DNA of 63,039 bases from a virus (IMGVR_UViG_3300033145_002283:1-63039); one strand, 5' to 3'; shown: positions 6,792 to 37,316, counted from the stretch's first letter. Notes: generated by a model from the letters alone, not told the origin. Program-made: numbers and translations.

Positions 6792-9700
6792 TTAAAATGG
6801 CACATCGTCAATGGTGTTTATAAAATTTGATATACCGTCCTTTAATATTTCTATCCGCCTTCTTCGGTCCCTCAATACCCATGAAGGGTGGACACACCAG
6901 CAGGCCACCATATCATATTCGGGTAAATATTGGGTTGTCCCGGATAATTTCGTTATCCCTCCTTTTTGCTCTGTGAATGCAGATAACCCAATATTGCCAA
7001 ACACCAGGGCTATCTTGCATTTTATAGCCGTCAGCTCCTTCCGGAGATACGGCATACAAGCTTTAATATGTTCAGGTTTGGGCGTACCAGTTTTTGACGG
7101 ATAGCATTTGCAAATATTTGAGATATGGAATTGTCTGCGACTATATCCGTACCGTTTGAAAATAGGCCATATTAATTGCCCGGATGCGCCCACAAACCCT
7201 TTCCCGGCTTCGTCTTCATCCGGACCGGGGGCCTCCCCAATAATGGCGGCATTATATATGCCCGGGGACGGATTGACCGGGGCATTGCATTCATTTCTTA
7301 ACCCGCATAATTTACAATCTCCAATAACCATTTTGGTTCTTATCCTAGAGATATAGGGCTGTTCAATCCATATTTTTTGCTCAACTGGCTGGAATAATCC
7401 CGGTTCAAAATATTCATCAAGAATATCCTGTTCTGGTACGGCTTTTTTATCGTGCGCCAGTATAATGTCCAATATCTTAGCGGTACCTTGCGGAACATTG
7501 ATCGGGGCATATTCACTGTCATCAAAAAACCCCGATAACTTTGCTTTTTTTGGCATGCAATTATACGCCGCCTTTTCGCCTATTCCTTTGATCTCTGTAA
7601 ATGGCGCATATAAAATACGATTATCAACCCGCCATTCAATAGCATCAGATATCCCTATTTTCGGAGACATCATCTGAAGCCCGGTTTCCCGGGCCTCGTT
7701 GGCAATATCTTCTTTACCAGTCCCATATGTGAGTTCAGCAGCCATAAATTCAGCCGGATAATGATATTTCAGCCATGCCGTCCAATACGATATCAGACCG
7801 TATTCTGTGGCGTGCGCTTTGTTAAATCCGTAACTGGCCCACTCCAAAAGCCCATGCCAAAATTCTTCTGCCCGTTTCCGGGAAAATGTTTTTTGGCGCA
7901 GGCACCCACAGATGAACATTTTTTTGTATTCTTCAAACGCTGACAGGTCCCGTTTTTTGGCAATTATTTTTCTGATTTTATCAGCAGTGGTTTCGGGTAA
8001 TCCGGCCAATTTAGAAATAACTGCCATGACCTGTTCCTGATAAACCAGCAGGCCATAGGTTTCTTTTGTAATCTCTTCATATATCGGATGGTCAGGCTCC
8101 CATCTGTCGCCTTTTTTTCTTTCAATATATTCTTCTGTCATTCCTGAGTAAAACGGCCCAGGTCGGACTAGGGCCAGTATGGCCGGGATATCAGCAAACT
8201 CATTGACTCCTACGTCCTGGCATAGTTTGGTTGATGGTTTGGCTGATAATTGAAAGACCCCCGCTGTTATCCCGTCAGAAAGCATTTTGAAGACATCTTT
8301 ATCATCTAACGGGATCTGGCTGAATTTGAAATCTTTTTTGCCGATCAATTTTTTGCATTGAGATAAGACAGACAATGTATTGAGGCCTAAAATATCCAAC
8401 TTCATCAGCCCACAATATTCACTGTCCTCCATGCTCCAATTGACCATAATACGATTTGACCGGACGGATAAATTGCATCTGTCAGTATAACGCAAATCAT
8501 CATTGGAAATGACAACTGCCGCCGCATGCTGGCCTGCTCCTCTGATTTGCCCTTTCAATTTCAGTGCATTGCGGGATACCTCCGGATATTGTTTTTTGAA
8601 ATCCTGCCCTTCATCCATTTCAAAAACCTTTTCAAGGGTATCCATATCATCCCGGAACGGCTGGATCGTTTTTGCGAACTCGTTTACCTCCTTGTACGGT
8701 ACTTCAAATACCCGCCCAACATCATGGATTATGCCCCGGTCTTTCATTCTCAGGAAAGTGGAGATCCCGGCTGTATTGTATTTACCATAGGTTTTTTCAA
8801 GATATTCAATTACCTGACCCCGTTTACGGTCTTCAAAATCAATATCAATATCCGGGTAATCCAGCCGGTCGTCAGAGATAAACCGGGAAAAATACAGGCC
8901 ATATTGGATGGGGTCTGTTTCTGTTATTCCTAAAATATAAGCAATCAGACTACCGCCGACACTGCCCCGGCCCGGGCCAACCATGATATCATTATCTCTG
9001 CACCAATGAATCAGATCAATCACGATTAAGAAATATCGTGAAAATCCTTTTCTGGAAATCAGATCAAATTCGTAATCATACCGGTTTTGGTATGCCTTTT
9101 GTTTTAACAATGAGGATCTGGGACTTGCTTCGATCAGCTTTTTAAGATTAAGGTCATCATCCGCTTTTAAATTAGGCGGCTCCGGCAGAGAGATATCTTG
9201 TTTGGGAACAACAAAATCAGCGCATTGCTCGGCAATCTTGATGGTTTTATCCATTGCCTTCTGTATGATGGTATCCGGCCAATGGTCCTGCTTCTCAAAC
9301 GCTCTGATCATTTCTTTTTCAGACCGCAGATGGAGGCCCCTGAACCCAAACTTGAATCTGTTTTGGTCACTCCATTTTGCCTTCCGGTTAATGGCCAGCA
9401 GGACTTCCTGCGCTTGCCAGTCTCCCCGGTTGATATAATGGCAATCATTGGTAGCGACAAAGGGCAAGTCGTATTCAAGACTTTTGATCAAGTCATGCTG
9501 TCTTTTTTGGGCTGGGATATTATGTGGCATGATTTCATAATAGCAATCCGTCTTGTCGCACAGATCGCATAAAAAATCCGGGCCTCCATCAAGATGTAAA
9601 AAAGATCCTGCGCAGGCAGTCATAAATATCAACCCGGATAAATCCAATTCCAAAACCGATTCAAAATCGGTCCGGGGCCTATGGTAAAATCCTTTCAGAT

Positions 9701-10061
9701 TGGCTTTTGTAAGCATGCTCAGAAGGGATTTCCAACCGGACAGGTTTTTGACCAGTACGGTTACATGCCCCCGTTTTTCACCTTTATGCTTGGCATCCAT
9801 GTATGGGACGATATACATTTCGCAGCCAATAACGGGCTTAATCCCTTCTTCTTTGCAGGCTTTTTGGAACTGAATTGCGCCATCAACATTGCCATGGTCA
9901 GTTATGGCTAAATATTCAAAACCCAGTTCTTTGGCTTTTCTGGCGTAAGCACGGGGCGTGCCTACGCCGTCAAGCTGGCTGTATTCGGTGTGGTTATGCA
10001 AGTGGCAGAAACTCATTGAACCCTCATCTATAATCGGATTATTTACACAGGGCGATTGCAT
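6792..10061 (-). CDS. dnaE: DNA polymerase III alpha with C-terminal family-4 uracil-DNA glycosylase (likely start 10016)
   Basis: PHP domain HLHNHTEYS/TDHG, GRGSVGGS, PDIDIDF, KLDILGL, YGFNKAH; C-terminal CxxC, GEAPG, NICKC, HPS. Confidence 0.93.
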   Translation of the reverse strand: MQSPCVNNPIIDEGSMSFCHLHNHTEYSQLDGVGTPRAYARKAKELGFEYLAITDHGNVDGAIQFQKACKEEGIKPVIGCEMYIVPYMDAKHKGEKRGHVTVLVKNLSGWKSLLSMLTKANLKGFYHRPRTDFESVLELDLSGLIFMTACAGSFLHLDGGPDFLCDLCDKTDCYYEIMPHNIPAQKRQHDLIKSLEYDLPFVATNDCHYINRGDWQAQEVLLAINRKAKWSDQNRFKFGFRGLHLRSEKEMIRAFEKQDHWPDTIIQKAMDKTIKIAEQCADFVVPKQDISLPEPPNLKADDDLNLKKLIEASPRSSLLKQKAYQNRYDYEFDLISRKGFSRYFLIVIDLIHWCRDNDIMVGPGRGSVGGSLIAYILGITETDPIQYGLYFSRFISDDRLDYPDIDIDFEDRKRGQVIEYLEKTYGKYNTAGISTFLRMKDRGIIHDVGRVFEVPYKEVNEFAKTIQPFRDDMDTLEKVFEMDEGQDFKKQYPEVSRNALKLKGQIRGAGQHAAAVVISNDDLRYTDRCNLSVRSNRIMVNWSMEDSEYCGLMKLDILGLNTLSVLSQCKKLIGKKDFKFSQIPLDDKDVFKMLSDGITAGVFQLSAKPSTKLCQDVGVNEFADIPAILALVRPGPFYSGMTEEYIERKKGDRWEPDHPIYEEITKETYGLLVYQEQVMAVISKLAGLPETTADKIRKIIAKKRDLSAFEEYKKMFICGCLRQKTFSRKRAEEFWHGLLEWASYGFNKAHATEYGLISYWTAWLKYHYPAEFMAAELTYGTGKEDIANEARETGLQMMSPKIGISDAIEWRVDNRILYAPFTEIKGIGEKAAYNCMPKKAKLSGFFDDSEYAPINVPQGTAKILDIILAHDKKAVPEQDILDEYFEPGLFQPVEQKIWIEQPYISRIRTKMVIGDCKLCGLRNECNAPVNPSPGIYNAAIIGEAPGPDEDEAGKGFVGASGQLIWPIFKRYGYSRRQFHISNICKCYPSKTGTPKPEHIKACMPYLRKELTAIKCKIALVFGNIGLSAFTEQKGGITKLSGTTQYLPEYDMVACWCVHPSWVLRDRRRRIEILKDGISNFINTIDDVPF

Positions 10062-21800: not shown

Positions 21801-22310
21801 TTATTCGTTGAGGGTTTTGTGGGCGAGATCAAAAATATCTGTTGCAACTTTTAATATTTTGTCTCTCATAATGTTGTTTTTTTCTTCGTTTTGGAGCATT
21901 TTGTTTTTCATATGATTATTTTTGAGACGTTCTTGCAAGACGAGCTGATTGCTTTTGGTCAGCTCACATTCCGTATCTTCCAACCGGTCTTTCATTTTTT
22001 TCAATTCGGTTTTGAGCCTTTCGATCTCGGTATTCTGCTCCATGATTTTAATTTCCATATCACAAGGCAGGGTCGGAAAGAAATCATTTTTGATTTTGTT
22101 TCTTAACCACTGTATATTCCGTCCGGTAAAATATTTATACAGGTAATTATCCGGGCATGTCAGGTATTCTTTTTCCAGACGGTCAATAATGGCGATTTCG
22201 TCGGCTTTACACATATTGTCTTCAATTTTCAGCATGAATTTTTTCATCGTTAACTCCTCACTATTTCTTGTATTGTTGACAATGCCCGCTGGGCGCGGGC
22301 GGGCTTCCAT
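21801..22310 (-). CDS. Coiled-coil hypothetical protein (likely start 22247)
   Basis: GAGGAG RBS before MKKFML. Confidence 0.6.
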   Translation of the reverse strand: MEARPRPAGIVNNTRNSEELTMKKFMLKIEDNMCKADEIAIIDRLEKEYLTCPDNYLYKYFTGRNIQWLRNKIKNDFFPTLPCDMEIKIMEQNTEIERLKTELKKMKDRLEDTECELTKSNQLVLQERLKNNHMKNKMLQNEEKNNIMRDKILKVATDIFDLAHKTLNE

Positions 22311-22744
22311 CCGGAATTTGTTACCAGATATCGGGTTAACCGCCGCCTGGTAACTTTGGGGCAGGACACTTCATTGCACATGGCGGCCAGCCGTTCCGGC
22401 ATGTTAAAAATTAAATTGATAATTGTAACCACATCATCCCCTGATTTTTCAAGGATATCCTTAAAGGCGACTCGTCTCTGTTGGTTGTAATTGTCTTTTG
22501 ACATATTGTCTGTAATAGGGCTGTTATCAATGGACGGTTTTGTAAAATTGTGCAGGTGCCCGTTGACAGTATTATACAGGTGGGTACAGAATTTGCTTTT
22601 ATCAGGGTTGAAAGTTTTGCACGCCCGAACATAAGCCCAATTGGCTTCAGAAAGAAGTTCGTCAAACTCATAACCGATCCGGGCATATCGCCAGACCAGT
22701 TTGTATATCATTTTTTTGTATTTGTTGTATTTGTTGTCCATCAT
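22250..22744 (-). CDS. RNA polymerase sigma-70-like factor
   Basis: Region 2 pattern MIYKLVWRY..EFDELLSEA..A..TFNPDKSKFCTHLY. Confidence 0.75.
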   Translation of the reverse strand: MMDNKYNKYKKMIYKLVWRYARIGYEFDELLSEANWAYVRACKTFNPDKSKFCTHLYNTVNGHLHNFTKPSIDNSPITDNMSKDNYNQQRRVAFKDILEKSGDDVVTIINLIFNMPERLAAMCNEVSCPKVTRRRLTRYLVTNSGWKPARAQRALSTIQEIVRS

Positions 22745-25282: not shown

Positions 25283-25996
25283 ATGGCAAATAAAAAACGG
25301 CAACGAACAAAAAATATCCCCAATAAGAAACCTAAGCATACATCCAAGTACCGTACATCAAAAATCCCATATAGAATACGGCATACAGAACCACTGCCGG
25401 ACATAGACCTAAACAATATAGATCAATATGATAAAGAACAGCTCAAACAGGTAATACTGTTGAACAGGGATAAGAACGGTAAACCAACAAAGTGGGGCCG
25501 CCCTACTGATTACAAACCTGAATATGATTATATGGCATATACCCTAATCAAGACCCATGGTATTACTATTGATGAACTGGCTGATGCATTTGGAACAACC
25601 TCTGCCGGGATCAAGAGATGGCGGGATACATACCCAAATTTTAATAATGCCATCATAAAAGGCCGGGACGAATTTGACAATGAACGGGTGAAGAAAACAC
25701 TGCGGGCCAGGGCACTGGGATACGAGTATGAGGAAAAGACGGTCAAGTATAAACGGTTCCCTGTGAAAGATAAAGATGACAAGGTCATCAGATGGGAAAT
25801 GAGACCTGTTGAAAGAACGGTTTACAAGAAAGCAATGCCCCCTGATGTTGGGGCTATTGCATGGTGGCAGAAAAATAGGGACTCGGCCCGCTGGAAAGAC
25901 CGCAAAGCAGTTGAGATTTCCGGGCCTGATGGCCAGCCCATGGAGCATAATGTCCATGTTTATATCCCGGAAAATGGTAGGGAAAAGGATAAATGA
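25283..25996 (+). CDS. terS: Terminase small subunit
   Basis: GRPTDYK, HTH, RALGYEYEE, PDVGAIAWWQKNR; upstream of TerL. Confidence 0.85.
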   Translation: MANKKRQRTKNIPNKKPKHTSKYRTSKIPYRIRHTEPLPDIDLNNIDQYDKEQLKQVILLNRDKNGKPTKWGRPTDYKPEYDYMAYTLIKTHGITIDELADAFGTTSAGIKRWRDTYPNFNNAIIKGRDEFDNERVKKTLRARALGYEYEEKTVKYKRFPVKDKDDKVIRWEMRPVERTVYKKAMPPDVGAIAWWQKNRDSARWKDRKAVEISGPDGQPMEHNVHVYIPENGREKDK

Positions 25997-27375
25997 CAGG
26001 TACAGGAACCATAATCCGGCCACAATCAGGGCCGCAGACGGCTTTTTTGGAAACACCTGCTGATATTGCTTTTTATGGTGGTGCAGCAGGTGGCGGAAAG
26101 ACCTTCGCCCTGTTGATGGAACCATTACGGCATATTCAGAACCCGAAATTTTCTGCTGTCATCTTCCGGCGGGAATCAACACAGGTTACTAATGAGGGTG
26201 GATTGTGGGATACGGCGTCTGAGATATATCCGGGTATCGGAGGCGCCCCAAATGAGAATAAATTGAAGTTCACATTTCCTAAGGGTTCCAGGGTCAGATT
26301 TGCACATTTACAACATGAGAAAAGCAAACATAACTGGCAAGGGGCGCAGGTTCCGTTTTTTGGGTTTGATGAGCTCACCCATTTTACATGGACGCAATTT
26401 ACATATATGTTGTCCAGAAATAGATCAACCTGCGGGGTCGTCCCATATATACGTGCAGGGTGCAATCCTGATCCTGATAGCTGGGTGAGGGATTTCATTG
26501 ACTGGTGGATTGGTGATGATGGTTTTGCTATTGATGAGCGGTCAGGGGTTATCAGATGGTTTATTGTATTGGGCAACGAGGTTATTTGGGCAAACAGTAA
26601 AGGATACCTGATCAAAAAATATGGTAAAGATATTGATGGCGAAGATGAAGCCATACAACCTAAATCGTTCACATTTATCAAATCCAATGTATATGACAAT
26701 AAAATTCTTCTCAAACAGAATCCTGAATACCTGGCAAACCTGATGGCCATGCCCCGGGTTGATCGGGAACGGCTGCTGGGTGGTAATTGGGATATCAGAC
26801 CGGTATCAGGGTTGTTTTTCCAGCGTGCATGGATTGAGATTGTTGATGAGTTACCGCCCAGGGATGAATTGGAAACAATACGGTACTGGGACAGGGCGGC
26901 AACGGAAAAAACTCCTGATAATGATCCATCATGGACGGCGGGAGTAAAACAATCGTATCATGAAACATCCGGGATCACGTTTATTGAACATGTTGAGAAA
27001 TTTCAGGGCACCCCTGCAACGGTCAGGAACAATGTTAAAAACCTGGCTATACAGGATACCGTTAATTGCATTGTAGGGATAGAACAGGACCCCGGCCAGG
27101 CCGGGAAGGCGGAGGCCGAGTCATATTTGGACCTGTTACCCCAGTTCAATGTCAAGATCAATGTTGTCAGAGAGTCCAAGGCCAACCGGGCGAAGCCAGT
27201 ATCCGCCCAGGCTGAACATGGGAGGTTGAAATTGCTGAGAGGCCCGTGGAATAAGGCGTTCCTGGACAAACTGGAATCATTCGATGGTACTGATAAAGGG
27301 CATATGGATGAGGTAGATGCAATGTCCGGTGGATATTATGTGTTGCACAACAAATCAAGGGTGGGGGTATGGTGA
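25993..27375 (+). CDS. terL: Terminase large subunit
   Basis: GGAAGGGKT, FDELTHF, CNP, RYWD, EQDPG, DEVDA. Confidence 0.95.
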   Translation: MTGTGTIIRPQSGPQTAFLETPADIAFYGGAAGGGKTFALLMEPLRHIQNPKFSAVIFRRESTQVTNEGGLWDTASEIYPGIGGAPNENKLKFTFPKGSRVRFAHLQHEKSKHNWQGAQVPFFGFDELTHFTWTQFTYMLSRNRSTCGVVPYIRAGCNPDPDSWVRDFIDWWIGDDGFAIDERSGVIRWFIVLGNEVIWANSKGYLIKKYGKDIDGEDEAIQPKSFTFIKSNVYDNKILLKQNPEYLANLMAMPRVDRERLLGGNWDIRPVSGLFFQRAWIEIVDELPPRDELETIRYWDRAATEKTPDNDPSWTAGVKQSYHETSGITFIEHVEKFQGTPATVRNNVKNLAIQDTVNCIVGIEQDPGQAGKAEAESYLDLLPQFNVKINVVRESKANRAKPVSAQAEHGRLKLLRGPWNKAFLDKLESFDGTDKGHMDEVDAMSGGYYVLHNKSRVGVW

Positions 27376-27638: not shown

Positions 27639-27812
27639 TAAAATCAATAGGTTATAAAACATGATTTCAACGAAATACATGAATATTGATAACTACTTGA
27701 TTTTATTACAAAAACATGTCCTTAAATTTAAACGATCTTTACATGGTGTATATAATTGTATTGATCAAAAATTATTGTTTAAATATGGGCGAATAAGAAG
27801 GTTGAAAAAATG
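27626..27812 (+). repeat. ~187-bp structured intergenic repeat, family A copy 1 (before portal)
   Basis: Near-identical to 37308-37493 and to the reverse complement of 51528-51714. Confidence 0.93.
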
Positions 27813-29195
27813 ACGGAGATCAATGAAAACGTGTTGAATCAGCTGATAGCTGCAACATCAGCGATGGTTACCAGAGCAGAGCTTGCAGCCAAACTGGGCA
27901 AGTCGTTTGATGGTGATCGGGATTTGTATGAGGCCCTTGGGTACAAGGTGAGCCCGGACTTCAACGATTTTATGGCCCGGTATACCCGCCAGGATATTGC
28001 CAAGGCGGTGATTGATAAACCGGTTAACGCCTCCTGGCGGCTGAAGCCGGTTATCACGGAATCAGACGATGCAGAAAGCACCCCGTTTGAAAAAGCATGG
28101 AATGATCTGGTCAAAGACAGAAAGGTTTTTCACTATCTCCGTAGGGTTGACCGATTGTCCAGAATAGGCCAGTACGGTGTTTTGATGATGGGGTTCGATG
28201 ACGTTGAGGACACCAGTGATTTCAAGCTGCCAGTTGAGGGTGAACGAAGATTGTTATACCTGCGGCCATATACGCAAGGTAATGCAGTGGTCGAAAGCCG
28301 GGTGATTGATAAATCAGATGAACGGTATGGTCTCCCGGAAACGTATAAAATCACAACTAAAAATCTGGGAACATTATCTGGTTCTGGCACCTCAAATATA
28401 ATCGTCCATCATACCAGGGTATTGCATATTGCCGAGGACCTGGTCGAAGACGATGAGAGCGCCGAACCGGCGTTAAAGGTCATTCTCAACAGACTGCATG
28501 ATCTGGAGCTATTGTCGGGCGGCAGTGCTGAAATGTTCTGGCGTGGTGCTTTTCCGGGCATGGCTTTCATGATGGACAAAGATGCAAACCCGGCCGCTCA
28601 GACATTGGCCGATATAAAAGACAATATTGAAGATTATGTTCATAAACTCCAGAGGTCATTGAGGTTGCAAGGTATTGATGTTAAGCAATTGGCCCCTGCT
28701 GTAGCAGACCCGTCCAACCATATTGATGTACAATTAACATTGATATCAGCGGCGACCGGGATCCCCAAACGGATATTGCTGGGATCAGAACGTGGGGAAT
28801 TGGCATCCAGCCAGGATGAACGTAATTGGAACATGCGGGTTGATGAACGTAGATCTGATTATGTTGAGCCCATGATTTTACGGCCGTTCATAGACCGAAT
28901 GATTGAATACGGGGTATTGCCGGAGCCCGCTGACGGATATGATGTTGAATGGCCTGAACTGTCCAGCCCGACTGAAAAAGAGAAAGCCGAGGTTTCCAAA
29001 CAGAAAACCGATACATTGGTTGCATACAGTAATAGTGCAAATGCCCAGCTGATTATCCCCCAGGATGTATACCTGAGAAAAATTATGGGTTTTGACCAGG
29101 AAGAAATGGCAGCCATTGAGGAAATTCAGGGCGAAATAGAGAAACAGTTAACAACCGAACCGGGCATGACCCCGGGCCAGGGGGCTGAGGAATAA
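27810..29195 (+). CDS. Portal protein (DUF1073-like)
   Basis: Position; DLYEALGY, HHTRVLH, ATGIPKRILLGSERGELAS. Confidence 0.88.
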   Translation: MTEINENVLNQLIAATSAMVTRAELAAKLGKSFDGDRDLYEALGYKVSPDFNDFMARYTRQDIAKAVIDKPVNASWRLKPVITESDDAESTPFEKAWNDLVKDRKVFHYLRRVDRLSRIGQYGVLMMGFDDVEDTSDFKLPVEGERRLLYLRPYTQGNAVVESRVIDKSDERYGLPETYKITTKNLGTLSGSGTSNIIVHHTRVLHIAEDLVEDDESAEPALKVILNRLHDLELLSGGSAEMFWRGAFPGMAFMMDKDANPAAQTLADIKDNIEDYVHKLQRSLRLQGIDVKQLAPAVADPSNHIDVQLTLISAATGIPKRILLGSERGELASSQDERNWNMRVDERRSDYVEPMILRPFIDRMIEYGVLPEPADGYDVEWPELSSPTEKEKAEVSKQKTDTLVAYSNSANAQLIIPQDVYLRKIMGFDQEEMAAIEEIQGEIEKQLTTEPGMTPGQGAEE

Positions 29196-31054
29196 TGGCA
29201 AAGGGCGCACTCATAGCGGTTGCAAACATGACCATGCGGGATAAAGACCCCACCATGACCCTGACGTTACGGGCAAAATTTGTGGCTCAGATGAATAAAC
29301 GGTTCCGGGCGCTCAAAGGAGCAATAAACAAGTCTATTATTGATAACGATTGTTTCGCTATTAAGAAAACTGTTGCAAATGTTGCATTGACTCCGCTTGG
29401 GGCAAAGACGTTCCAGTACACTAAAGACCCGGAAAAGATTAAGGGGTTCATGACGTGGCTGAAGGGCGAAGAAGAAAAAGGCATATTGGAGATTTCCATG
29501 GTGCCGTCTATGATGGGGCCTACCGGCGTGCCCTGGACCAATGTTTATATCCAGTCCGCATATCAGAAAGGTATAGCGCAGGCCCGGATTGATATGAAAC
29601 AGGGTGGGGCACCAATTGATACGTATACCGATCAGACCCTTAACATGGCATTTTATCAGCCGTTCCATGCTGACAGGGTGGCGCTGATTTATACCCGGGC
29701 ATATAATGAGCTGAAAGGTGTAACCGAAGCCATGAACCAGCAGATCAGCCGGGAGCTGGCATTGGGGATGGCCCGGGGTGATGGCCCGTACAGAATAGCC
29801 CAACTGTTGAACGACCGTGTTGATAAAATAGGGATTGTACGTGCAAGGTTGATCGCTCGCACAGAAACAGTCCATGCCCTGAACGAAGCAGCCTTGAATG
29901 AATATGAGCTGTTGGAAAACATGGTTGGTGAAACGGTAAAGGTAAAGTGGTGGACGGCCCTTGATGAACGGGTTAGATCTCAACATGCAGCGTGGCATGG
30001 AAAAGTGATGACCCGAAAGGTCGGCCGGGCAAGAATAGGTGCTCCTAATTGCCGTTGCGCTCTGCGCCCGTGGCTGGATAGTTGGGACGAAGAAGAGCAG
30101 GAGCTTGCAGGTATTACAGGTCCAAAGCCAATGTCGTCCATTGGCCGTTTTGGTAAATGCCTTGTTTCCAGAATTGCTAATATTTTCAATCGTAAAACAG
30201 CAGTAAAACCGCAGGCATGTAGGGATTATGTGCGGGATAAAAAAGGTAATTGGTATCTGAATGGAGAAAAGGTTAAAGGGGATGCTTTTGACAGGCTTAA
30301 AAAAATGAGGATCCCGCCTGCATGGAAAAACGTTGTCGTGGCGGTTGATACTTCAATGGATATACAGGCCATTGGGCGGGACGCCGCAGGGCGATGGCAA
30401 TATCGGTATTCCGCCGAGCATGTTGCCAAAAAGGCAAGAGAGAAATTCGACCGCTTGAAATCCTTTACCCGGAATATGCCTTCAATGCGACGTAAAATAG
30501 CGGATGATATGGCGGCCGGGGACGATAGGGCAATGTTGTTGCATCTTGAGGACAAGACCGCTATCAGGGCAGGATCGAAAACAGATTTCAAGGCCAAGAA
30601 AAAAGCGTATGGGCTGACGACATTGAAAAGCAGGCATGTATCCGTATCTGGCGATAAGATAACTCTGGATTTCACAGCCAAGGAAGGAATAGCAGCTCAT
30701 TATGAACTTGAAGATGACGTTTTGGCTGAATGGCTGACTGAAAGAAAAGCGTCCGTGGGTATTGACGATGATTTGTTCCCGGATTTGAGCGCACAGAAAA
30801 TGAACAAATACATCAAAGAACTATCCAATGGTGAAAAGTTTACTCTTAAGGATTTCCGAACATACCATGGGACACGGATTGCATATGATGAGATAAAACA
30901 ATATGCCGGAATGGAATTGGACACCAAGAAGAAAAAAGAAATACTTCAGGAGGTGTCCAAAAAAGCAAGCGACTTCTTGCACAATACCCCAACCATGGCG
31001 AGGAACAGCTATATTGATCCGATGGTCTGGGAGTTTATAGGTGGAATAAGATGA
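29195..31054 (+). CDS. MuF/SPP1 gp7-like minor head protein fused to DNA topoisomerase IB
   Basis: RARLIARTET, DERVR..H, PNCRC; then IPPAWKNV, GRDAAGRWQYRY, IRAG, YGLTTL, KDFRTY, LHNTP, SYIDP. Confidence 0.92.
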   Translation: MAKGALIAVANMTMRDKDPTMTLTLRAKFVAQMNKRFRALKGAINKSIIDNDCFAIKKTVANVALTPLGAKTFQYTKDPEKIKGFMTWLKGEEEKGILEISMVPSMMGPTGVPWTNVYIQSAYQKGIAQARIDMKQGGAPIDTYTDQTLNMAFYQPFHADRVALIYTRAYNELKGVTEAMNQQISRELALGMARGDGPYRIAQLLNDRVDKIGIVRARLIARTETVHALNEAALNEYELLENMVGETVKVKWWTALDERVRSQHAAWHGKVMTRKVGRARIGAPNCRCALRPWLDSWDEEEQELAGITGPKPMSSIGRFGKCLVSRIANIFNRKTAVKPQACRDYVRDKKGNWYLNGEKVKGDAFDRLKKMRIPPAWKNVVVAVDTSMDIQAIGRDAAGRWQYRYSAEHVAKKAREKFDRLKSFTRNMPSMRRKIADDMAAGDDRAMLLHLEDKTAIRAGSKTDFKAKKKAYGLTTLKSRHVSVSGDKITLDFTAKEGIAAHYELEDDVLAEWLTERKASVGIDDDLFPDLSAQKMNKYIKELSNGEKFTLKDFRTYHGTRIAYDEIKQYAGMELDTKKKKEILQEVSKKASDFLHNTPTMARNSYIDPMVWEFIGGIR

Positions 31055-31185
31055 TATACGACATTGATAAAAAAAGTGAAACCGAATTTAATGAATGGTT
31101 GGAATCCATCAGCTTTGTGGACAGTGATGGATCTGTTTTACCAGTTAAAAATCACCCTGATCCTGATCCTGATCCCGGTGATTAA
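31051..31185 (+). CDS. Small acidic 44-aa protein
   Basis: ATGA overlap with the MuF-TopIB stop; MIYDIDKKSETEFNEWLESISFVDSDGSVLPVKNHPDPDPDPGD. Confidence 0.55.
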   Translation: MIYDIDKKSETEFNEWLESISFVDSDGSVLPVKNHPDPDPDPGD

Positions 31186-31200
31186 AACAACGGAGGGAAT

Positions 31201-32673
31201 ATGCGAGTTGTAAATCAAATACTGGCTAATTACCAGACGCAGGAAAGGACATTTGAGGGCCGGGAATACCTGGTGGCCCCAGTGGTGATGCTGAAAGAAG
31301 GAGTGCATAACGGCTCCGCCGGGCCGCTGTATTACCCGCCTGATGTCATCAAGAATTCGGCAGACAGGTGGGAGAACGTTCCAGTCACGATCCCGCACCC
31401 GGAAAATGATGGGGAATTGATTTCTGTATCTGACCCGGGCGGTGACCGTTTTATTGCCGGGCATGTTCGGAACGTCCAAACTCAGGATGATGAGCTGAAA
31501 GCTCAGGTATGGCTGGATATTGACCGTACTAACCAGATCAATCCTGCTGTTATCCCCGCAATTCGCAATCATAATCCGGTTGAGGTTTCCACAGGGCTGG
31601 GAGGGGCGTTTGAGCCGGAGCAGGGGACCTGGAACAATGAAACATATGATGCCATGGTGAAAGATATCGCCCCTGATCATCTGGCCCTGCTGCCGGGCGC
31701 CGTTGGCGCATGCAGCTGGGACGATGGTTGCGGTATCAGAAATGAAGAGAAAGGAGGGTTTGTGAAAAATATAAAAGACCGTATTCTGAATCAGTTTGGT
31801 GTGATACTTGAAAAGCTGGGGCTGACGGATATTGACAACAGTGCCAGTTTTGGGGATATTCAGACAGCGCTTCAGTTGTTGGTTGATGCTCTGGATAATG
31901 ACACGTATTACCATTATATCAACGATGTGTACGACGATTACTTTATTTACCGGGCAATGCCGAGGGAGAGGGAAGAGCGGGGGATTGGATCAAATGCCGT
32001 GTCTACCCTTTATAAACAAGGCTATTCCAAGATCGACGACAAGGTTGAGTTTGTAGGCGAGCCCGTGGAAGTTATAATGACCAAGGAATACAAACCAGTT
32101 GCAAATGACAATAGTGGACAAAAAATTAAAAACAAACAGGAGGACAAGAAAATGGCATGTTGCGAAGAAAGAGTTGAGGCATTGATCAAGAATGAGAAAA
32201 CCACCTTCACTGAGGATGATAAGGAATGGCTGAACAATCTTGATCAGGAACAGTACGAGCGGGTGGAGACAACGGCCCTGCGGTTTCATGAGGTTGATAA
32301 CAAAGTGGATGAGCCTGAAAAAAAGGAGACTGTTGACAATCAGGATCCGGCCACAGAGGACAAAAAACCCATTACTACGGAGGATTACATCAAACAGGCT
32401 CCGCCTGAAATTCAGAGCGTTCTGAATGAGAGCCTGGCTCTCCACAACCAGAAACGGCAGACCCTGATTGAAGGGCTGATGGCGAATGAAAGGAATAAAT
32501 TCACCAAGGAACAGCTTGAGGAGATGGACACCATCCAGCTGGAACAGATCGCGGCCCTGGCGGATATTCCCGTCAAGGCAAATTATGCGGCCAACTCCGG
32601 TGGCAAGGTTGATGGCAACGGGGCGGGTGAGCCGCTTGTACCGCCCAGGATAGAACCGGCGAAATCAAAATAA
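31201..32673 (+). CDS. Prohead protease/scaffold (DUF2213-like)
   Basis: PVTIPHP, EVSTG, PDHLALL..GACS..DGCG; acidic scaffold-like C-terminus. Confidence 0.85.
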   Translation: MRVVNQILANYQTQERTFEGREYLVAPVVMLKEGVHNGSAGPLYYPPDVIKNSADRWENVPVTIPHPENDGELISVSDPGGDRFIAGHVRNVQTQDDELKAQVWLDIDRTNQINPAVIPAIRNHNPVEVSTGLGGAFEPEQGTWNNETYDAMVKDIAPDHLALLPGAVGACSWDDGCGIRNEEKGGFVKNIKDRILNQFGVILEKLGLTDIDNSASFGDIQTALQLLVDALDNDTYYHYINDVYDDYFIYRAMPREREERGIGSNAVSTLYKQGYSKIDDKVEFVGEPVEVIMTKEYKPVANDNSGQKIKNKQEDKKMACCEERVEALIKNEKTTFTEDDKEWLNNLDQEQYERVETTALRFHEVDNKVDEPEKKETVDNQDPATEDKKPITTEDYIKQAPPEIQSVLNESLALHNQKRQTLIEGLMANERNKFTKEQLEEMDTIQLEQIAALADIPVKANYAANSGGKVDGNGAGEPLVPPRIEPAKSK

Positions 32674-33346: not shown

Positions 33347-34405
33347 ATGAGTGAAATGAATGTTGATTTTATTGCAAATGGTGAGGCGATTGGCAATACA
33401 GCACAGCGCCTGCTGGCGAACGGGATGGACCCCATGGCCCTGCGGCCCTATATCGGCAATGATGGCAAGCCGTACATGACCAAGATGATCGGCAACAAGG
33501 CCGTGGCTGTACCGGTTTCGAACGCTACCTTGCAGAAGGATGAATGGCTCCAGTTTGACGAGGCTGTTCTGAAAGCATATCAGAACCGGCTTGTTGGGGT
33601 GAAAGATCTTTATGATCGTAATCTGGTTTATCGGATTGGTAATGGGCTTGGCACCACTGTGCTTGAGTACCAGACCATGACTGATATCCAAGGGGCGCAG
33701 GTGAGCATGGACGCAGCTACCCGGGGAAGGAAAGACCGGCCTGAGTTCGACAGTGCGTATTTACCCCTGCCCATTGTTCATATGGATTTTTCTTTCAACA
33801 TACGTCAGCTGACGGCTTCCAGATCCAAGGGATCTCCGCTGGATACGACCATGGCTGAGCAGTGTGCTCGGAAATGTGCGGAAAAGGTTGAGGAACATCT
33901 TTTTAATGGGGCTGACGCGTATTCGTTTGGTGGTGGTACCATTCGTGGCTATCTCGATCATGCCAGCCGTAATACCGGATCGCTGAACCCGGCATGGACC
34001 GGCTCTGCTGCTACTGGCGCGACCATTGTTGATGACGTGAGGGCAATGAAACAGGCTGCCATCAATGACCGTGCTTTTGGGCCGTATGTTCTGTATGTAC
34101 CCACGGCATATGAGACCGTTCTGGATGATGATTATGTTTCCGGTTATCCTAAGACTATCCGCACCCGGATTCTTGAGATCTCCGGAATCGAGGATGTCAA
34201 GGTTTCTGATACCCTGACCGCTGCAAATGTGGTTCTGGTGCAGATGACCTCTGATGTTATCCGAATGGTTGAAGGGCTGGGAATCACGGTTGTTGAGTGG
34301 AGCACGGAAGGTGGCATGGTTCTGAATTACAAGGTCATGGTCATCCAGGTCCCGCAGGTACGGGCTGATTCCGAAGGCCGTTCCGGCATTCAGCATTGGT
34401 CTTAA
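33347..34405 (+). CDS. Major capsid protein (HK97 fold, encapsulin/Linocin-like group)
   Basis: ATLQKDEW..D, PLPIVH.DF...RQL.ASR, GPYVLYVP; strong RBS. Confidence 0.88.
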   Translation: MSEMNVDFIANGEAIGNTAQRLLANGMDPMALRPYIGNDGKPYMTKMIGNKAVAVPVSNATLQKDEWLQFDEAVLKAYQNRLVGVKDLYDRNLVYRIGNGLGTTVLEYQTMTDIQGAQVSMDAATRGRKDRPEFDSAYLPLPIVHMDFSFNIRQLTASRSKGSPLDTTMAEQCARKCAEKVEEHLFNGADAYSFGGGTIRGYLDHASRNTGSLNPAWTGSAATGATIVDDVRAMKQAAINDRAFGPYVLYVPTAYETVLDDDYVSGYPKTIRTRILEISGIEDVKVSDTLTAANVVLVQMTSDVIRMVEGLGITVVEWSTEGGMVLNYKVMVIQVPQVRADSEGRSGIQHWS

Positions 34406-34455: not shown

Positions 34456-34812
34456 ATGAAGAGGTACAGACTCAAAGAAGGATGTGGGTCACATTATACA
34501 AGGGACGGCAGACGGCTGGAGGCCGGTGATTATATCGAGGTTAATGGGGATTGGGAGCTGGGCAGCGCCATTGATAAATTTGAAGAGGTTGTTTCCCGGC
34601 GCAGATCAAAGGCGCCCGAGCCGGTCAAAGCCAAGGTTGCAGAACCTGAACCAGATAAAGAACCTGAACCGGAAGACAAACAGGACGAAGCGGAACTCCA
34701 AATGGTTCATCATGGTGGTGGCCGTTACAATGTTGTCAATTCTGTGACGGATGAAATTATTAATGACGGCTGGTTGACCAAGGAAGAAGCAGAAGCATTG
34801 GTGAATGGATAA
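34456..34812 (+). CDS. Hypothetical head-associated protein
   Basis: Follows MCP; PE-rich linker; HHGGGRYNV. Confidence 0.7.
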   Translation: MKRYRLKEGCGSHYTRDGRRLEAGDYIEVNGDWELGSAIDKFEEVVSRRRSKAPEPVKAKVAEPEPDKEPEPEDKQDEAELQMVHHGGGRYNVVNSVTDEIINDGWLTKEEAEALVNG

Positions 34813-35444
34813 TGGGCTGGATCGCACCTAAAATATGGCCCGGCAGAACCGCCTATATTTTAGGCGGTGGGCCAAGCCTGAACGATGTTGATTTGAATCT
34901 GCTGAAAGGCAAAAAGATGATTGGTGTTAATAACTCCAGTTTTCTGTTGCCGGAAATCAATGTCTGCTATTTTGGAGATTATAAGTGGGTCATGCGGTAC
35001 CGGGAGCGGCTTGAGAGATTTGGAGGCCTGATTCTTACCAGCTGTTATGAGAAATGGTTTAAACGGGATTCATGGTTGGCTGGGCATGTTAAAAAATTAA
35101 CCCGGGGCAAGCCAAAGGGCATTGAAATCGAACCGGGGGTTATTGCGTGGAACAAATGCTCAGGGCTGTCGGCGATAAACCTTGCACACCATTTTGGATG
35201 TTCCAAGGTTGTGTTGCTCGGTTTTGATATGCGGGTTGTGGGAGGTAAGAAAAATTTCCATGATGAGTATATTGGTTGGGAGAATACCCCGCATGATATT
35301 TACGAAAAGTATCTGCAGTGCATCCCATATATTGCTCGGGATGCTGAGAAAATAGGGTTAGAAATTTACAATGCAACGCCTGACAGTGCAATAACTGAAT
35401 TTAAACAAATAACCATTGAGGAGACGGTGTCATGGCAAAATTGA
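34812..35444 (+). CDS. Maf/DUF115 (CST-like) putative glycosyltransferase
   Basis: ILGGGPSL, IGVN, SG..AINLA...G...VVLLGFDM. Confidence 0.7.
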   Translation: MGWIAPKIWPGRTAYILGGGPSLNDVDLNLLKGKKMIGVNNSSFLLPEINVCYFGDYKWVMRYRERLERFGGLILTSCYEKWFKRDSWLAGHVKKLTRGKPKGIEIEPGVIAWNKCSGLSAINLAHHFGCSKVVLLGFDMRVVGGKKNFHDEYIGWENTPHDIYEKYLQCIPYIARDAEKIGLEIYNATPDSAITEFKQITIEETVSWQN

Positions 35445-36007
35445 AAGCAAATATGAAGGTTAATTTCAACCAGCAATACATTGATCCGTCAGTAAAAGTA
35501 ATGCCCGGGGCCAGAATCGGTATTGGGGTGTATATTGATGAAAATGTGATAATTGGGGAAGACGTTTTTATCGGTCATAATACGGTCATTAGATCCGGTG
35601 TGAGGATTGGTGACGGAACTGTGATCGGCCATCTATGCGTAATTGAACGGGACACAGTAATTGGAGAAAAGACAACAATACAGTCCAACTCTCATATTAC
35701 GGCCGAGGCCCGGATTGGGGATAAATGCTATTTCGGCCCGGGCGTGGTTATGATTAATGAAGGCCGGATTACCGCAATGCGGGATTCGATGCTACAGAAT
35801 CTTCAAGGCCCGGTGATTGGAAATGGTTGCCGGATTGGGGCGAGAGCATTAATCATGCCCGGGGTTAGGATCGGCCATAACGCCGAAATCGGCGCAGGGG
35901 CTATAATCACAACTGGTCGGGTAATTGGGGATAACGAAGTTTGGTATAATCCTGAAACCCAGGCTGCTTTTCAAGGCCATGTACCGGAGGAACAATGGAT
36001 AAAATGA
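35432..36007 (+). CDS. Left-handed beta-helix acyltransferase
   Basis: Many hexapeptide repeats (V.IG...IG); IGNGCRIGARALIMPGVRIG. Confidence 0.85.
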   Translation: MAKLKANMKVNFNQQYIDPSVKVMPGARIGIGVYIDENVIIGEDVFIGHNTVIRSGVRIGDGTVIGHLCVIERDTVIGEKTTIQSNSHITAEARIGDKCYFGPGVVMINEGRITAMRDSMLQNLQGPVIGNGCRIGARALIMPGVRIGHNAEIGAGAIITTGRVIGDNEVWYNPETQAAFQGHVPEEQWIK

Positions 36008-36648
36008 TAAAATTCGTTGTCGTTCTTAATTCCGGCGGTGATTATACCTCTGATGACGTGATAACATTAGCCAGGCAGGTTGGGAGGAATTTGCATTGTC
36101 CTTATGTGTTCTTCTGCCTAACTGATGTCAGGATAAATCACGGAATGGTCATAGATATTCCGCTTGAGACTCCTGAATGGAAGCCTAAATGGTGGTCGGT
36201 TCAGGAAATGTTCAGGATTCAAGGGCCGGTGCTCGCCACTGGGCTGGATACGGTTATAGTAGGGGATATTACCCCCATGGCTGAAGAGGTTTTGAAACTG
36301 AATACAAATCAATTCCTGCTTATGCAGCCATTCAGAAAAACAGCTCCTTGGCCTTGGATCAATGGGTTCATGGGTTGGAATGGTGATTTTGGTTGGATTT
36401 ATGATGAGTTTAAAAAAGATCCTGAAAAATATATCAGCCAATTCCGTTCTGAAATGCTGTATACTCAGAACAGGTTGATGTCACATGGATATGAAATATT
36501 GGCATGGCAGGACAAGGTGAACGGGTTGTACAGTTATAAATGGCAGTGCAAACCAAAACCGCCTGAAGACATCAGAGTGGCAATATTTCATGGACAGCCA
36601 AGACCTGGGGACGTGAACGATAAATGGATAAAGGATGCCAGGCTATGA
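35995..36648 (+). CDS. GT-A fold glycosyltransferase-like protein
   Basis: SGGDY, F.CLTD, WWS, GLDTVIVGDI (DxD variant), FHGQPRP. Confidence 0.7.
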   Translation: MDKMIKFVVVLNSGGDYTSDDVITLARQVGRNLHCPYVFFCLTDVRINHGMVIDIPLETPEWKPKWWSVQEMFRIQGPVLATGLDTVIVGDITPMAEEVLKLNTNQFLLMQPFRKTAPWPWINGFMGWNGDFGWIYDEFKKDPEKYISQFRSEMLYTQNRLMSHGYEILAWQDKVNGLYSYKWQCKPKPPEDIRVAIFHGQPRPGDVNDKWIKDARL

Positions 36649-37316
36649 TCGAACCGATCCTTATAACGGGCTGTGCCCGGTCCGGGACATCAATGACGGC
36701 CGGGATAATTAATCAGGCAGGTGCCTGGGGCGGGGATATGTACCCGGCGCAGAAGGAGAATAAGAAAGGGATGTTTGAGAATATTACCTTTCGGGACCGG
36801 CTCGTAAAACCGTTTATCAAGTCAATTGGTGCCGACCCCATGGCGCAGAATCCTTTGCCTGATATTGACTCTTGTAAATTGGTGTCTGAACAGGCCGTTG
36901 ATAACTGGCGGCAGATTGTGCTTCATGAAATCAGGCATCAGGGTTACAAATCCGGCCCGTGGTTTTACAAAGATCCCAAGATGTGCATAATCTGGCCGGT
37001 TTGGGCGAGGGCCTTCCCGAACGCCAGATGGATTATTGTCCGGCGGGCAAGCGGGGATATTGTCAGGTCATGTCTGAAAACCAGATTTATGAGGGCTTAT
37101 GCTGATGAAATTGGATGGCTGAAATGGGTGGATCATCATAAAGAGTGCTTTTTGCAGATGTCCCATGCAGGCTTAAATATACAATATGCCTGGCCTCAGG
37201 AATGGATTGACCGGGATTATACCGGTATCAGAGCTATATTGATAAGACTGGGGCTTGAGTATGATAAGAATAAAATTGAATCGTTTATTGAACCGGCTCT
37301 TTGGTCGAATAAATAG
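36624..37316 (+). CDS. PAPS-dependent sulfotransferase (likely start 36645)
   Basis: ITGCARSGTS 5'-PSB loop, KDP, IIVRR...IVRS 3'-PB motif. Confidence 0.82.
   Translation: MDKGCQAMIEPILITGCARSGTSMTAGIINQAGAWGGDMYPAQKENKKGMFENITFRDRLVKPFIKSIGADPMAQNPLPDIDSCKLVSEQAVDNWRQIVLHEIRHQGYKSGPWFYKDPKMCIIWPVWARAFPNARWIIVRRASGDIVRSCLKTRFMRAYADEIGWLKWVDHHKECFLQMSHAGLNIQYAWPQEWIDRDYTGIRAILIRLGLEYDKNKIESFIEPALWSNK

Follow-up and report, generated by a model that had tools for sequence, protein, structure and literature searches.

The window analysed here, the complete 63,039-bp virus record IMGVR_UViG_3300033145_002283, carries in its head-assembly module a single open reading frame (ORF) in which a MuF minor head protein is joined to a type IB topoisomerase (TopIB), and the stop codon of this fusion gene overlaps the start of a small acidic companion ORF. 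As judged from sequence alignments and a structural model, the TopIB half is catalytically complete, of bacterial type and with a two-domain fold. The reading that we favour, with a probability of about one half, is that of an accessory cassette coding for a capsid-loaded, injected TopIB which would act on DNA at the start of infection. The parts of the gene and of the cassette, delimited by ORF calls, Pfam matches, a hidden Markov model (HMM), alignments and an AlphaFold2 (AF2) model scored by its predicted local distance difference test (pLDDT), are the following.

29195..31054, plus strand: MuF-TopIB fusion gene, a single ORF of 619 amino acids (aa) with an ATG start
29195..30103, plus strand: MuF head-anchoring module, aa 1-303 (Pfam core at aa 182-290; PNCRC at aa 284-288), conserved left flank of the cargo swaps
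30104..30127, plus strand: acidic flexible linker, aa 304-311, where the cassette starts (AF2 pLDDT below 50 at aa 302-308)
30128..30187, plus strand: TopIB-associated adapter motif PMxSIGxxxxC, aa 312-322, with Cys322 (30158-30160), in a predicted helix of aa 314-331 (alignments, AF2)
30188..30211, plus strand: variable loop, aa 332-339, the position at which natural two-gene forms are broken (AF2 pLDDT below 50 at aa 331-338)
30212..30412, plus strand: TopIB N-terminal DNA-binding domain, aa 340-406, with Cys342 (30218-30220) and Q402-Y403-x-Y405 (Pfam Top1B_N_bact; variola alignment)
30413..31051, plus strand: TopIB catalytic domain, aa 407-619, reaching the C-terminus of the protein (Pfam Topoisom_I; sequence and fold matches in PDB)
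30566..31012, plus strand: codon span of the catalytic pentad (R458, 30566-68; K496, 30680-82; R555, 30857-59; N597, 30983-85; Y606, 31010-12)
31051..31185, plus strand: companion ORF of 44 aa, whose ATG overlaps the TopIB stop codon as ATGA (ORF, HMM)
30105..31188, plus strand: swappable cassette of linker, adapter, TopIB and companion (comparison with a contig of run X3)

The original prediction, made from the sequence alone, had placed a MuF-TopIB gene with apparently intact catalytic motifs at 29195..31054, and a 619-aa ORF was found at exactly these coordinates. Its three domains were judged against the curated Pfam cut-offs and all were above them: Phage_Mu_F (PF04233) at aa 182-290 (E = 2.2e-13; 51.3 bits, cut-off 29.6), Top1B_N_bact (PF21338) at aa 357-396 (E = 5e-10; 39.4 bits, cut-off 27) and the Topoisom_I catalytic core (PF01028) at aa 412-602 (E = 7e-25; 88.2 bits, cut-off 23.7). 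In addition, PHROG 758 (head morphogenesis) matched aa 10-292 with an E-value of 6e-42. The best solved relative by sequence was the TopIB of Deinococcus radiodurans (2f4q; E = 1.7e-34, aa 361-613). The catalytic pentad of these enzymes is formed by Arg, Lys, Arg, His or Asn, and Tyr, with Asn in the bacterial enzymes (PMC2647283, PMC2666729). Every motif named in the prediction was present, each on a catalytic position of the 2f4q alignment: R458 (AIRAG), K496 (TAKEG), R555 (KDFRTY), N597 (LHNTP) and Y606 (NSYIDP). The catalytic residue of LHNTP is Asn597, as in bacterial enzymes, and not the His that precedes it, while K552 is the equivalent of vaccinia K220. For D. radiodurans, two of the pentad positions are numbered Arg-237 and Lys-235 in PMC2666729 and 239 and 236 by count of the aligned chain; the other three agree. 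In the N-terminal domain, Q402-Y403-x-Y405 aligned to the QYFY segment of variola TopIB (the DNA-contacting QYxY strand) and was nearly invariant in A1.

The AF2 model, based on an alignment of 90 sequences, had a mean pLDDT of 89.8 and a predicted template-modelling score of 0.59, with two confident domains and low confidence in the linker and loop stretches listed above; across aa 340-619 the pLDDT was mostly above 90. All 22 matches of the model in PDB by Foldseek (E ≤ 0.001) were type IB topoisomerases. The N-terminal domain of the TopIB matched the vaccinia N-domain 1vcc, and DNA-bound variola TopIB gave a target-normalised TM score of 0.72-0.73 with a root-mean-square deviation (rmsd) of 3.9 Å; for 2h7f, also matched by sequence (E = 2.1e-12), the score was 0.73 over 289 columns. 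No PDB match to the MuF half was found by Foldseek. Relaxation by TopIB requires no ATP, which is a property of the family (PMC2647283), and Mg2+ is required by one bacterial TopIB (PMC2666729).

The architecture search suggested in the prediction found PF04233 and PF01028 in one protein in 37 of the 120 relatives listed from a search of 5.8 billion proteins. These come from independent assemblies (JGI, ENA, Logan, NCBI) and are 38-68% identical to the window protein; 18 of the 37 (P0002-4, P0006-19) had BLAST matches to both halves. The continuous fusion was also present in two complete genomes with direct terminal repeats (L035, L023), and the linker region aligned across relatives with no frame breaks. 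Since the same architecture occurs in independently assembled relatives, the junction is not an assembly error, and these comparisons confirm it as real. Additional fused forms were obtained by a profile search of 1.84 billion cluster representatives, giving 234 collected proteins, 124 of them with a TopIB module. The fusion was absent from 50,697 deposited phage records, of which 230 matched only the MuF half; the TopIB half was matched weakly by two, one being a stand-alone TopIB of 254 aa in Bacteroides phage BS162P1, outside a structural context. A pattern-limited scan of 185,579 reference genomes found the fusion in a single one, on a 61.8-kb contig of a metagenome-assembled genome (MAG) that resembles a phage genome.

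A TopIB module 48-66% identical to that of the window was found in 53 of the 120 relatives listed, while stand-alone cellular TopIBs were only 30-34% identical to it. The pentad was invariant in 52 of these 53 clade members (the remaining one, P0077, is cut by the contig end) and in all 21 stand-alone TopIBs. A tree built from 143 TopIB modules placed the window in a clade with an SH-aLRT (Shimodaira-Hasegawa-like approximate likelihood ratio test) support of 100, in which 72 of the 79 rows are fused; its sister assemblage, with 20 fused rows out of 25, includes sigma-fused and Portal_Mu forms, and the sampled cellular TopIBs made up a separate clade of 22 rows. It must be taken into account that this tree is a quick search with a midpoint root and that its sampling is biased by the fused query.

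TopIB lay at the extreme C-terminus of 83 of the 91 TopIB proteins with at least 450 aa. The Pfam architectures comprised MuF-TopIB, MuF-X-TopIB, MuF-ART-TopIB (ART, ADP-ribosyltransferase), MuF-zincin(ATLF-like)-TopIB and 2H-phosphoesterase-TopIB, as well as fusions to Portal(PF04860)-MuF (P0026, P0046, L008), to Portal_Mu with or without MuF (P0147, P0154, L037), to Phage_min_cap2 (L030, as Phage_min_cap2-TopIB-X) and to modules of polyvalent proteins (LPD1-TopIB in L048; ART-PolyVal-TopIB-MuF in P0161). ART or zincin domains accompany TopIB in P0010, P0025, P0024 and others, and L024 is a protein of 2224 aa of the form MuF...ART-TopIB. The window protein has MuF and a single effector domain and is not a multi-effector polyvalent protein, as L024, L048 and P0161 of the same TopIB clade are. 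A metagenomic protein of 1964 aa, P0148, contains MuF at aa 597-695 and Sigma70 regions 2 and 4 at aa 1487-1642, directly followed by TopIB at aa 1701-1927; it would be a virion-anchored sigma factor adjoining a topoisomerase.

Between MuF and TopIB there is a short region with a constant layout, consisting of the nearly invariant PMxSIGxxxxC, a variable stretch of 15-25 residues and PxxCxDYxR, whose Cys (C342) opens the N-terminal domain. The strict motif was found in 27 of the 53 clade members, where TopIB always follows it at a distance of 26-37 aa; none of the 46 MuF proteins with other cargo in place of TopIB and none of the 21 stand-alone TopIBs had it. As this distance from TopIB is also kept in the long multi-domain forms, the adapter belongs to TopIB and not to MuF. 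With a relaxed pattern, 48 of 90 fused proteins had both the motif and the second Cys, 39 had neither, three had only the second Cys and none had only the motif; in the 53-member set, both Cys were present in 42 proteins, neither in seven, and four were discordant, two of which have no upstream region. These co-occurrence counts are inflated by relatedness. The helix at aa 314-331 was predicted by AF2 with moderate confidence (block pLDDT of 79 and 65). Four natural two-gene forms (L006, L015, L016, L083) are all broken between the two Cys, so that the upstream protein ends in a PM...C tail and the TopIB ORF opens a few residues before the C.DY motif; the upstream protein of L083 had a weak match to ART-PolyVal and not to MuF. 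Taken together, these patterns suggest that the adapter and its Cys pair form a docking element that would hold TopIB to its carrier.

In L006 (2522-2527) and L015 (2809-2814), the carrier and TopIB ORFs are in the same frame and are split only by a TAA or TAG stop codon followed immediately by ATG, which could represent a simple stop-start coupling or allow an occasional read-through giving separate and fused products. A nucleic-acid hairpin at the PM..IG codons (a 7-bp inverted repeat at 30127-30145) was considered and dropped: the mean stem in 11 loci was 4.64, versus 4.59 ± 0.45 in synonymous-codon controls. The adapter is therefore conserved as protein and not as a hairpin. An internal start at the nearly invariant Met313 was likewise discarded, as no Shine-Dalgarno sequence lies upstream of it.

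The 44-aa companion is very acidic, with 12 Asp or Glu residues versus three Lys. Its homologues, of 38-62 aa, are also acidic, lie 3' of TopIB in related loci and share the consensus E..FN.WL.SI.FVD..G...P..L..D.S.DPE.DR. With 22 of these ORFs an HMM was built and run on six-frame fragments of every locus, which gave exactly one match in the window. Of the 35 loci with a TopIB at least 45% identical to that of the window it matched 34, and the 35th (L025) ends inside TopIB, which leaves 34 of 34 assessable loci; several of them are near-duplicates, about 28 being distinct. Six matches were independent of the seed (L007, L016, L019, L030, L033, which was weak, and L034). There was no match in 46 loci with more distant TopIBs. 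Among the MuF genes of the window lineage (the best 80 of 269 loci from an alignment-based scan of viral contigs, a scan with the single MuF protein having found nothing), none of the 79 loci without TopIB was matched, and the only match in the 80 was L093, the one TopIB locus of the set. Of the 23 loci listed, 20 had a companion start that overlaps the TopIB stop. In the related loci the companion is strictly linked and translationally coupled to TopIB.

In a large database, the companion family comprised 126 clusters, all of 38-88 aa, with no Pfam domain and named only as hypothetical protein; at least 12 of these clusters are on contigs equal in size to contigs with TopIB fusions. For the companion itself, Pfam gave nothing above threshold and the best score in the ESM Atlas was 0.84, which is chance level. 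The AF2 model predicted a confident helix at aa 7-19 (pLDDT of about 90), a short turn and an extended acidic tail. The companion occupies the place that a cognate immunity gene has in MuF toxin systems; its function as immunity protein or inhibitor is putative, and it is conserved rather than polymorphic. In the lineage, a small ORF (40-100 aa) followed 14 of 19 cargo-bearing MuF genes versus nine of 24 bare ones, although these are mechanical ORF calls and the difference is suggestive only. In L089 (5136-5300), a 54-aa ORF with a net charge of about −9 follows the cargo, its start overlapping the stop, and similar ORFs occur in L146, L123 and others. The small ORFs after other cargos of the lineage are unrelated in sequence to the TopIB companion.

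The cassette is exchanged between close relatives. A contig from run X3 (record 15, 3553 nt, depth 13.4), of about 92% DNA identity, matched the window at 29389-30104 and 31189-31298, with 1196 unrelated bases between both segments; it leaves the window after base 30104 (codon 303) and rejoins it at 31189, 12 nt before the next gene. As this divergence spans 30105-31188, linker, adapter, TopIB and companion were replaced together. The conserved N-terminal MuF with an exchanged C-terminal domain was found as well in P0005, whose 98% identity with the window protein stops after aa 303 and gives way to an unrelated cargo with an HExxH motif, and in L089. The latter is as close to the window as the TopIB-bearing L035 (large terminase 80%, portal 67%, MuF about 72-73% to approximately aa 300, and major capsid protein, MCP, 75%), and it carries an unrelated cargo of 250 aa after the same ...WLDSWD(E/D)E breakpoint. 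Among the 74 complete MuF genes of the lineage set, one had TopIB, 48 were bare (216-356 aa) and 25 had other cargo or inteins. The alternative cargos include ADP-ribosyltransferases, ATLF-like zincins and a PI3/4-kinase-like domain, the latter in L147 (135-2609; aa 538-675, E = 1e-7). Inteins, some of them with DUF559/Vsr-like or LAGLIDADG homing endonucleases, interrupt MuF near its conserved C-terminal part in P0027, P0034, P0131, P0143, P0151, L090, L129, L137, L144 and L157.

Whole-record searches found no TopIB of any kind in 10 long genomes that are related but have no fusion. Each of the 10 has one or more further head genes in common with the window, and five are at least 90% complete; as a control, each of five genomes with the fusion had exactly one TopIB. 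Within the TopIB-bearing sub-lineage, identities were 47-67% for TopIB, 39-64% for portal and 45-70% for MCP, and this divergence in step with portal and MCP suggests a long-term retention of TopIB. Altogether, the comparisons support an accessory cassette that was gained, long kept and sometimes swapped.

The fusion gene lies in the head-assembly module of the phage, directly 3' of the portal gene, and its neighbours, identified by Pfam and PHROG scans, are listed below.

25283-25996: small terminase
25993-27375: T4-type large terminase (TerL)
27810..29195, plus strand: portal gene (Pfam Phage_portal_3, E = 3.6e-37)
31201..32673, plus strand: head-maturation-protease-like or scaffold gene, conserved right flank of the cassette (Pfam DUF2213; PHROG 760 and 530, head maturation protease; synteny)
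Between the DUF2213 gene and the MCP gene: head-decoration-like gene
33347-34405: MCP

The TAA stop codon of the portal gene overlaps the ATG of the fusion gene (TAATG), with a GAGGA Shine-Dalgarno sequence upstream, which indicates that the fusion gene is translationally coupled to the portal. The order TerL-portal-MuF-TopIB-protease/scaffold-decoration-MCP is kept in eight related loci of the lineage (L035, L007, L014, L023, L031, L004/5, L032 and L033).

The record is classed as complete (direct terminal repeats, 100%), with an exact terminal repeat of 114 bp. This repeat was rejected as a true fixed end; since the terminase is of T4 type, it is most simply read as a circular-assembly overlap. 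The genome encodes a large replication and repair set (DnaE-type Pol III alpha, beta clamp, clamp loader, DnaB, primase, RecA and SbcCD-like proteins) as well as two SNF2 helicases, two DNA methylases, a holin, a muramoyl-alanine amidase and siphovirus tail genes. Pfam and PHROG scans of its 91 ORFs detected neither an integrase nor a repressor nor an excisionase, and no second topoisomerase; there is no tRNA in the window. Given this gene content, with no integrase, repressor or excisionase, the phage is apparently a virulent siphophage of a bacterium. Near-identical fragments are present in public runs labelled as hydrothermal vent metagenome, and these labels, with two MAG labels (Deltaproteobacteria and Thermodesulfobacteriota), are weak hints of a vent or sediment host of these groups. 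The closest relatives of the MuF half (aa 18-302) among cultured viruses are haloarchaeal tailed viruses, with Halorubrum phage Hardycor1 at 40.9% identity, and one relative, P0076, is labelled as a Candidatus Heimdallarchaeaceae MAG. As the window phage itself is clearly bacterial, the lineage of this MuF seems to include viruses of both bacteria and archaea. An archaeal host for the window phage was discarded, as it encodes the DnaE-type Pol III alpha, beta clamp, DnaB, a sigma-70 region 2 protein, amidase and holin.

Other traits of the genome should be mentioned. The sigma-70 region 2 protein (22253-22744, minus strand; Pfam 7e-8; PHROG 351) is encoded at the start of the leftward early/replication arm. 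The DnaE-type Pol III alpha, an ORF of 1089 aa at 6792-10061 on the minus strand (PHP, NTPase and finger domains), has a C-terminal domain of the uracil-DNA glycosylase superfamily at aa 938-1067. Between MCP and the tail genes (34812-37316, plus strand) there are sialyltransferase-like, hexapeptide acyltransferase, glycosyltransferase and sulfotransferase genes, a block that may serve to modify the virion or the host surface. Poxvirus-type (C/T)CCTT sites gave no signal in the genome (270 observed versus 292.7 ± 18 under a Markov-3 model); a relaxed specificity has been described in bacterial TopIBs (PMC2666729).

In the course of infection that we favour, MuF would bind the portal and place a few copies of TopIB inside the procapsid. 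In the producer cell, the companion would bind TopIB, probably as an acidic DNA-mimicking inhibitor or as a chaperone, and this restraint would keep the late-made enzyme off replicating or packaging DNA. In the next infection, TopIB would leave the head with the DNA and relax supercoils on the incoming genome with no need of ATP, helping early transcription and establishment. The gp7 protein of SPP1 is known to be brought to the procapsid interior by portal binding, in few copies, and virions devoid of gp7 are about 25% infectious (PMC6316719), while, in the view of Iyer et al. (2017, PMC5512222) and Jamet et al. (2017, PMC5576092), MuF anchors injected effectors in the virion. We assign the cassette to the early-phase injected effectors because of its position as MuF or polyvalent cargo, its coupled companion and its exchange with ART and zincin cargo. 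The idea of capsid loading put forward in the original prediction is well supported by comparison, through the coupling to the portal gene and the independent fusions of TopIB to Portal plus MuF, Portal_Mu, Phage_min_cap2 and polyvalent modules. Its option of torsion relief during packaging or ejection is disfavoured as a core mechanical role: close relatives manage with no TopIB at all, as the cargo swaps, the 10 long genomes and the single TopIB among 74 MuF genes illustrate, so that such a role is unlikely. Regarding delivery, its option that the enzyme enters with the genome fits best, whereas that of an attack on host DNA stands as a live rival, strengthened by the companion.

As for the substrate, we lean somewhat towards the phage genome rather than the host nucleoid, because of the few copies, the one sigma-TopIB fusion and the vaccinia precedent. 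A few virion copies would be enough for one incoming genome, and hardly so for a chromosome that is re-supercoiled by gyrase. In vaccinia, the topoisomerase enters the particle along with RNA polymerase, capping enzyme and helicase (PMC6336343). The sigma-TopIB fusion P0148 offers a hint of a link to early transcription. Loss of the topoisomerase in a vaccinia knockout reportedly reduces early transcription.

Several points weigh against the injected-TopIB reading. The sigma-TopIB fusion is one of 124 TopIB proteins and comes from the sister assemblage, which has no adapter motif, and the loci of that assemblage (L036-L042) also have no companion. A dedicated coupled small gene and the swapping with ART and zincin cargo are hallmarks of toxin-immunity cassettes, and they favour a host-directed weapon over an aid to the DNA of the phage itself. 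Moreover, a TopIB fused to a portal could leave the head only after proteolysis, and a linear, headful-packaged genome would have no obvious need for relaxation until it is closed or anchored.

The alternative that survives best, which we regard as unlikely on balance but serious, is that of a host-directed toxin of the MuF polymorphic type (PMC5576092), in which the injected TopIB would relax or damage the host chromosome, for takeover or interbacterial competition, and the companion would be its immunity protein. The layout agrees with it, since a variable cargo follows a conserved MuF at a fixed breakpoint and is swapped with a tightly coupled small downstream gene, and the cargos found at the same position include ADP-ribosyltransferases, ATLF-like zincins and the PI3/4-kinase-like domain; the excess of small ORFs after cargo genes points weakly in the same direction, and the TopIB of Pseudomonas aeruginosa is toxic when expressed in Escherichia coli (PMC2666729). 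However, the lysogen-advantage logic of temperate MuF toxins does not apply here, because no lysogeny genes were found in the 91 ORFs and only one of the 185,579 reference genomes in the pattern-limited scan had the fusion. The pentad, furthermore, is fully religation-competent, so that the enzyme would relax rather than degrade DNA; the companion is conserved across the clade and not hypervariable; the parallel divergence of TopIB with portal and MCP suggests long retention; and the few virion copies would have to face the host gyrase.

A mechanical swivel at the portal, by which the tethered TopIB would release twist during packaging or ejection and stay in the capsid, is quite improbable. 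The Portal-MuF-TopIB triple fusions would indeed fix the enzyme at the portal, the gene is within the packaging and head operon, and no ATP is needed (PMC2647283). Nevertheless, other cargo is carried by P0005 (MuF 98% identical), by the X3 contig (about 92% identical in DNA) and by L089, which is as close as the TopIB-bearing L035; 48 of the 74 complete MuF genes are bare and the 10 long related genomes have no TopIB; a coupled, inhibitor-like companion is, besides, hard to reconcile with a purely structural role.

Even less credit can be given to an ordinary intracellular enzyme of replication or recombination acting on concatemers, with the MuF fusion being incidental or cleaved off. It is true that the TopIB-like enzymes of PaBG, Motura, phiRSL1 and Lu11 are filed under replication and topology (PMC7824862), that the stand-alone TopIB of phage BS162P1 lies outside a structural module and that the window phage has a large replisome and no other topoisomerase. 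But the gene of this clade is always in the head module and never in the replication arm, it is nearly always fused to a virion anchor (72 of the 79 clade rows are fused), the protein would be made late, with the portal, and even the PaBG enzyme (gp084) is encoded four genes from the major head protein. Finally, a chimeric assembly or a missed frameshift joining two genes has a negligible probability: the small contigs of four public runs do not bridge 30105-30231 and natural two-gene forms exist in other phages, but the fusion is continuous in relatives from independent assemblies and in complete genomes.

Extending the preferred reading of an injected TopIB, it can be tentatively envisaged, with the odds against the whole of it, that the virions of a large clade of uncultured tailed phages contain an active TopIB as part of an injected early genome kit. 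The enzyme would be docked on the portal-bound MuF through the cysteine-linked adapter helix, even when encoded by separate genes, silenced in the producer cell by a co-translated acidic DNA mimic, and released with the DNA as an ATP-free swivel for first transcription or genome entry, as an independent counterpart of the poxvirus core transcriptosome. If TopIB is head-anchored and injected, DNA topology would join ADP-ribosylation, proteolysis and virion RNA polymerases among the functions that phages control as soon as the first seconds of infection. The cassette, a fusion of 619 aa with a partner of 44 aa, is compact and lends itself to testing. The companion could prove to be a new, naturally occurring protein that inhibits or chaperones TopIB, and the adapter and its Cys pair might serve as a portable device for docking cargo on MuF, of use in engineered capsid delivery of proteins. 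The family occurs widely across metagenomes, with 126 clusters of the companion and dozens of architectures of the fusion, and has no member among the 50,697 cultured or deposited phage records, which marks a gap in the knowledge gained from cultured phages.

With respect to known systems, virion-borne topoisomerases are textbook knowledge for poxviruses, and no description of a MuF-TopIB fusion or of a virion-borne TopIB of a tailed phage was found in the literature searched. The window protein belongs to a known kind, that of MuF-anchored virion cargo, while the TopIB cargo, the adapter with its Cys pair and the companion gene are apparently new within that literature. As in the MuF/SPP1 gp7 cargo proteins (Jamet et al., 2017, PMC5576092; Iyer et al., 2017, PMC5512222), MuF is found right after the portal, with an exchangeable C-terminal enzyme and a small gene downstream, and relatives of the window protein have polyvalent versions with ART, zincin, LPD1 and ART-PolyVal. 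It differs from them in that its cargo is a TopIB with its own adapter and Cys pair, the phage is apparently virulent and the companion is conserved in the clade. The word topoisomerase appears only in the reference list of PMC5512222, as far as its main text goes, and nowhere in the main text of PMC5576092.

The TopIB half shares with the enzymes of D. radiodurans (2f4q/3m4a), P. aeruginosa and variola/vaccinia the two domains, the QYxY strand and the fold (TM 0.72-0.73 to variola), and with the bacterial ones the Arg-Lys-Arg-Asn-Tyr pentad with its Asn. Unlike the stand-alone TopIBs, to which it is 30-34% identical, it belongs to a separate viral clade and is never free-standing in the window lineage; the 21 stand-alone enzymes have no adapter and Cys pair of the window type. 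Regarding phage enzymes, a phage-specific topoisomerase I has been reported in PaBG, Motura, phiRSL1 and Lu11 and read as an enzyme of replication and topology, with no mention of MuF in the passage concerned (PMC7824862). Gp084 of the jumbo phage PaBG resembles the window protein in being a phage protein, of about 550 aa, that ends in a TopIB catalytic domain, but only that domain aligns (hhalign probability 82%, aa 304-535). The identity to the jumbo-phage enzymes is 14-16%. Foldseek aligned the jumbo-phage enzymes over 572-594 columns, an alignment which for full-length gp084, with an rmsd of about 26 Å, is not to be trusted. The gp084 gene (NC_022096.1, 56209-57897) lies among structural genes, and the N-terminal half of its product, of 300 aa, has no assigned domain; this protein may also be virion-associated. 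As a candidate for a cultured MuF-TopIB it was dropped, since neither Pfam nor profile comparison gave a MuF signal in these 300 aa.

In its proposed role, the window TopIB is comparable to vaccinia H6R, a TopIB that is made late and carried in the particle, where it is packaged with the transcription machinery (PMC6336343). The poxvirus enzyme is, however, not attached to another protein and resides in a core where transcription takes place in situ, whereas that of the window is covalently tethered to a predicted portal-binding module of a tailed phage and would have to pass through the tail. The nearest functional parallels in phages are the ADP-ribosyltransferase Alt of T4 and the virion RNA polymerase of N4, which are packed in the head, injected with the DNA and reprogramme the first minutes of infection (PMC5512222); they are other enzymes, brought to the head by other targeting mechanisms.

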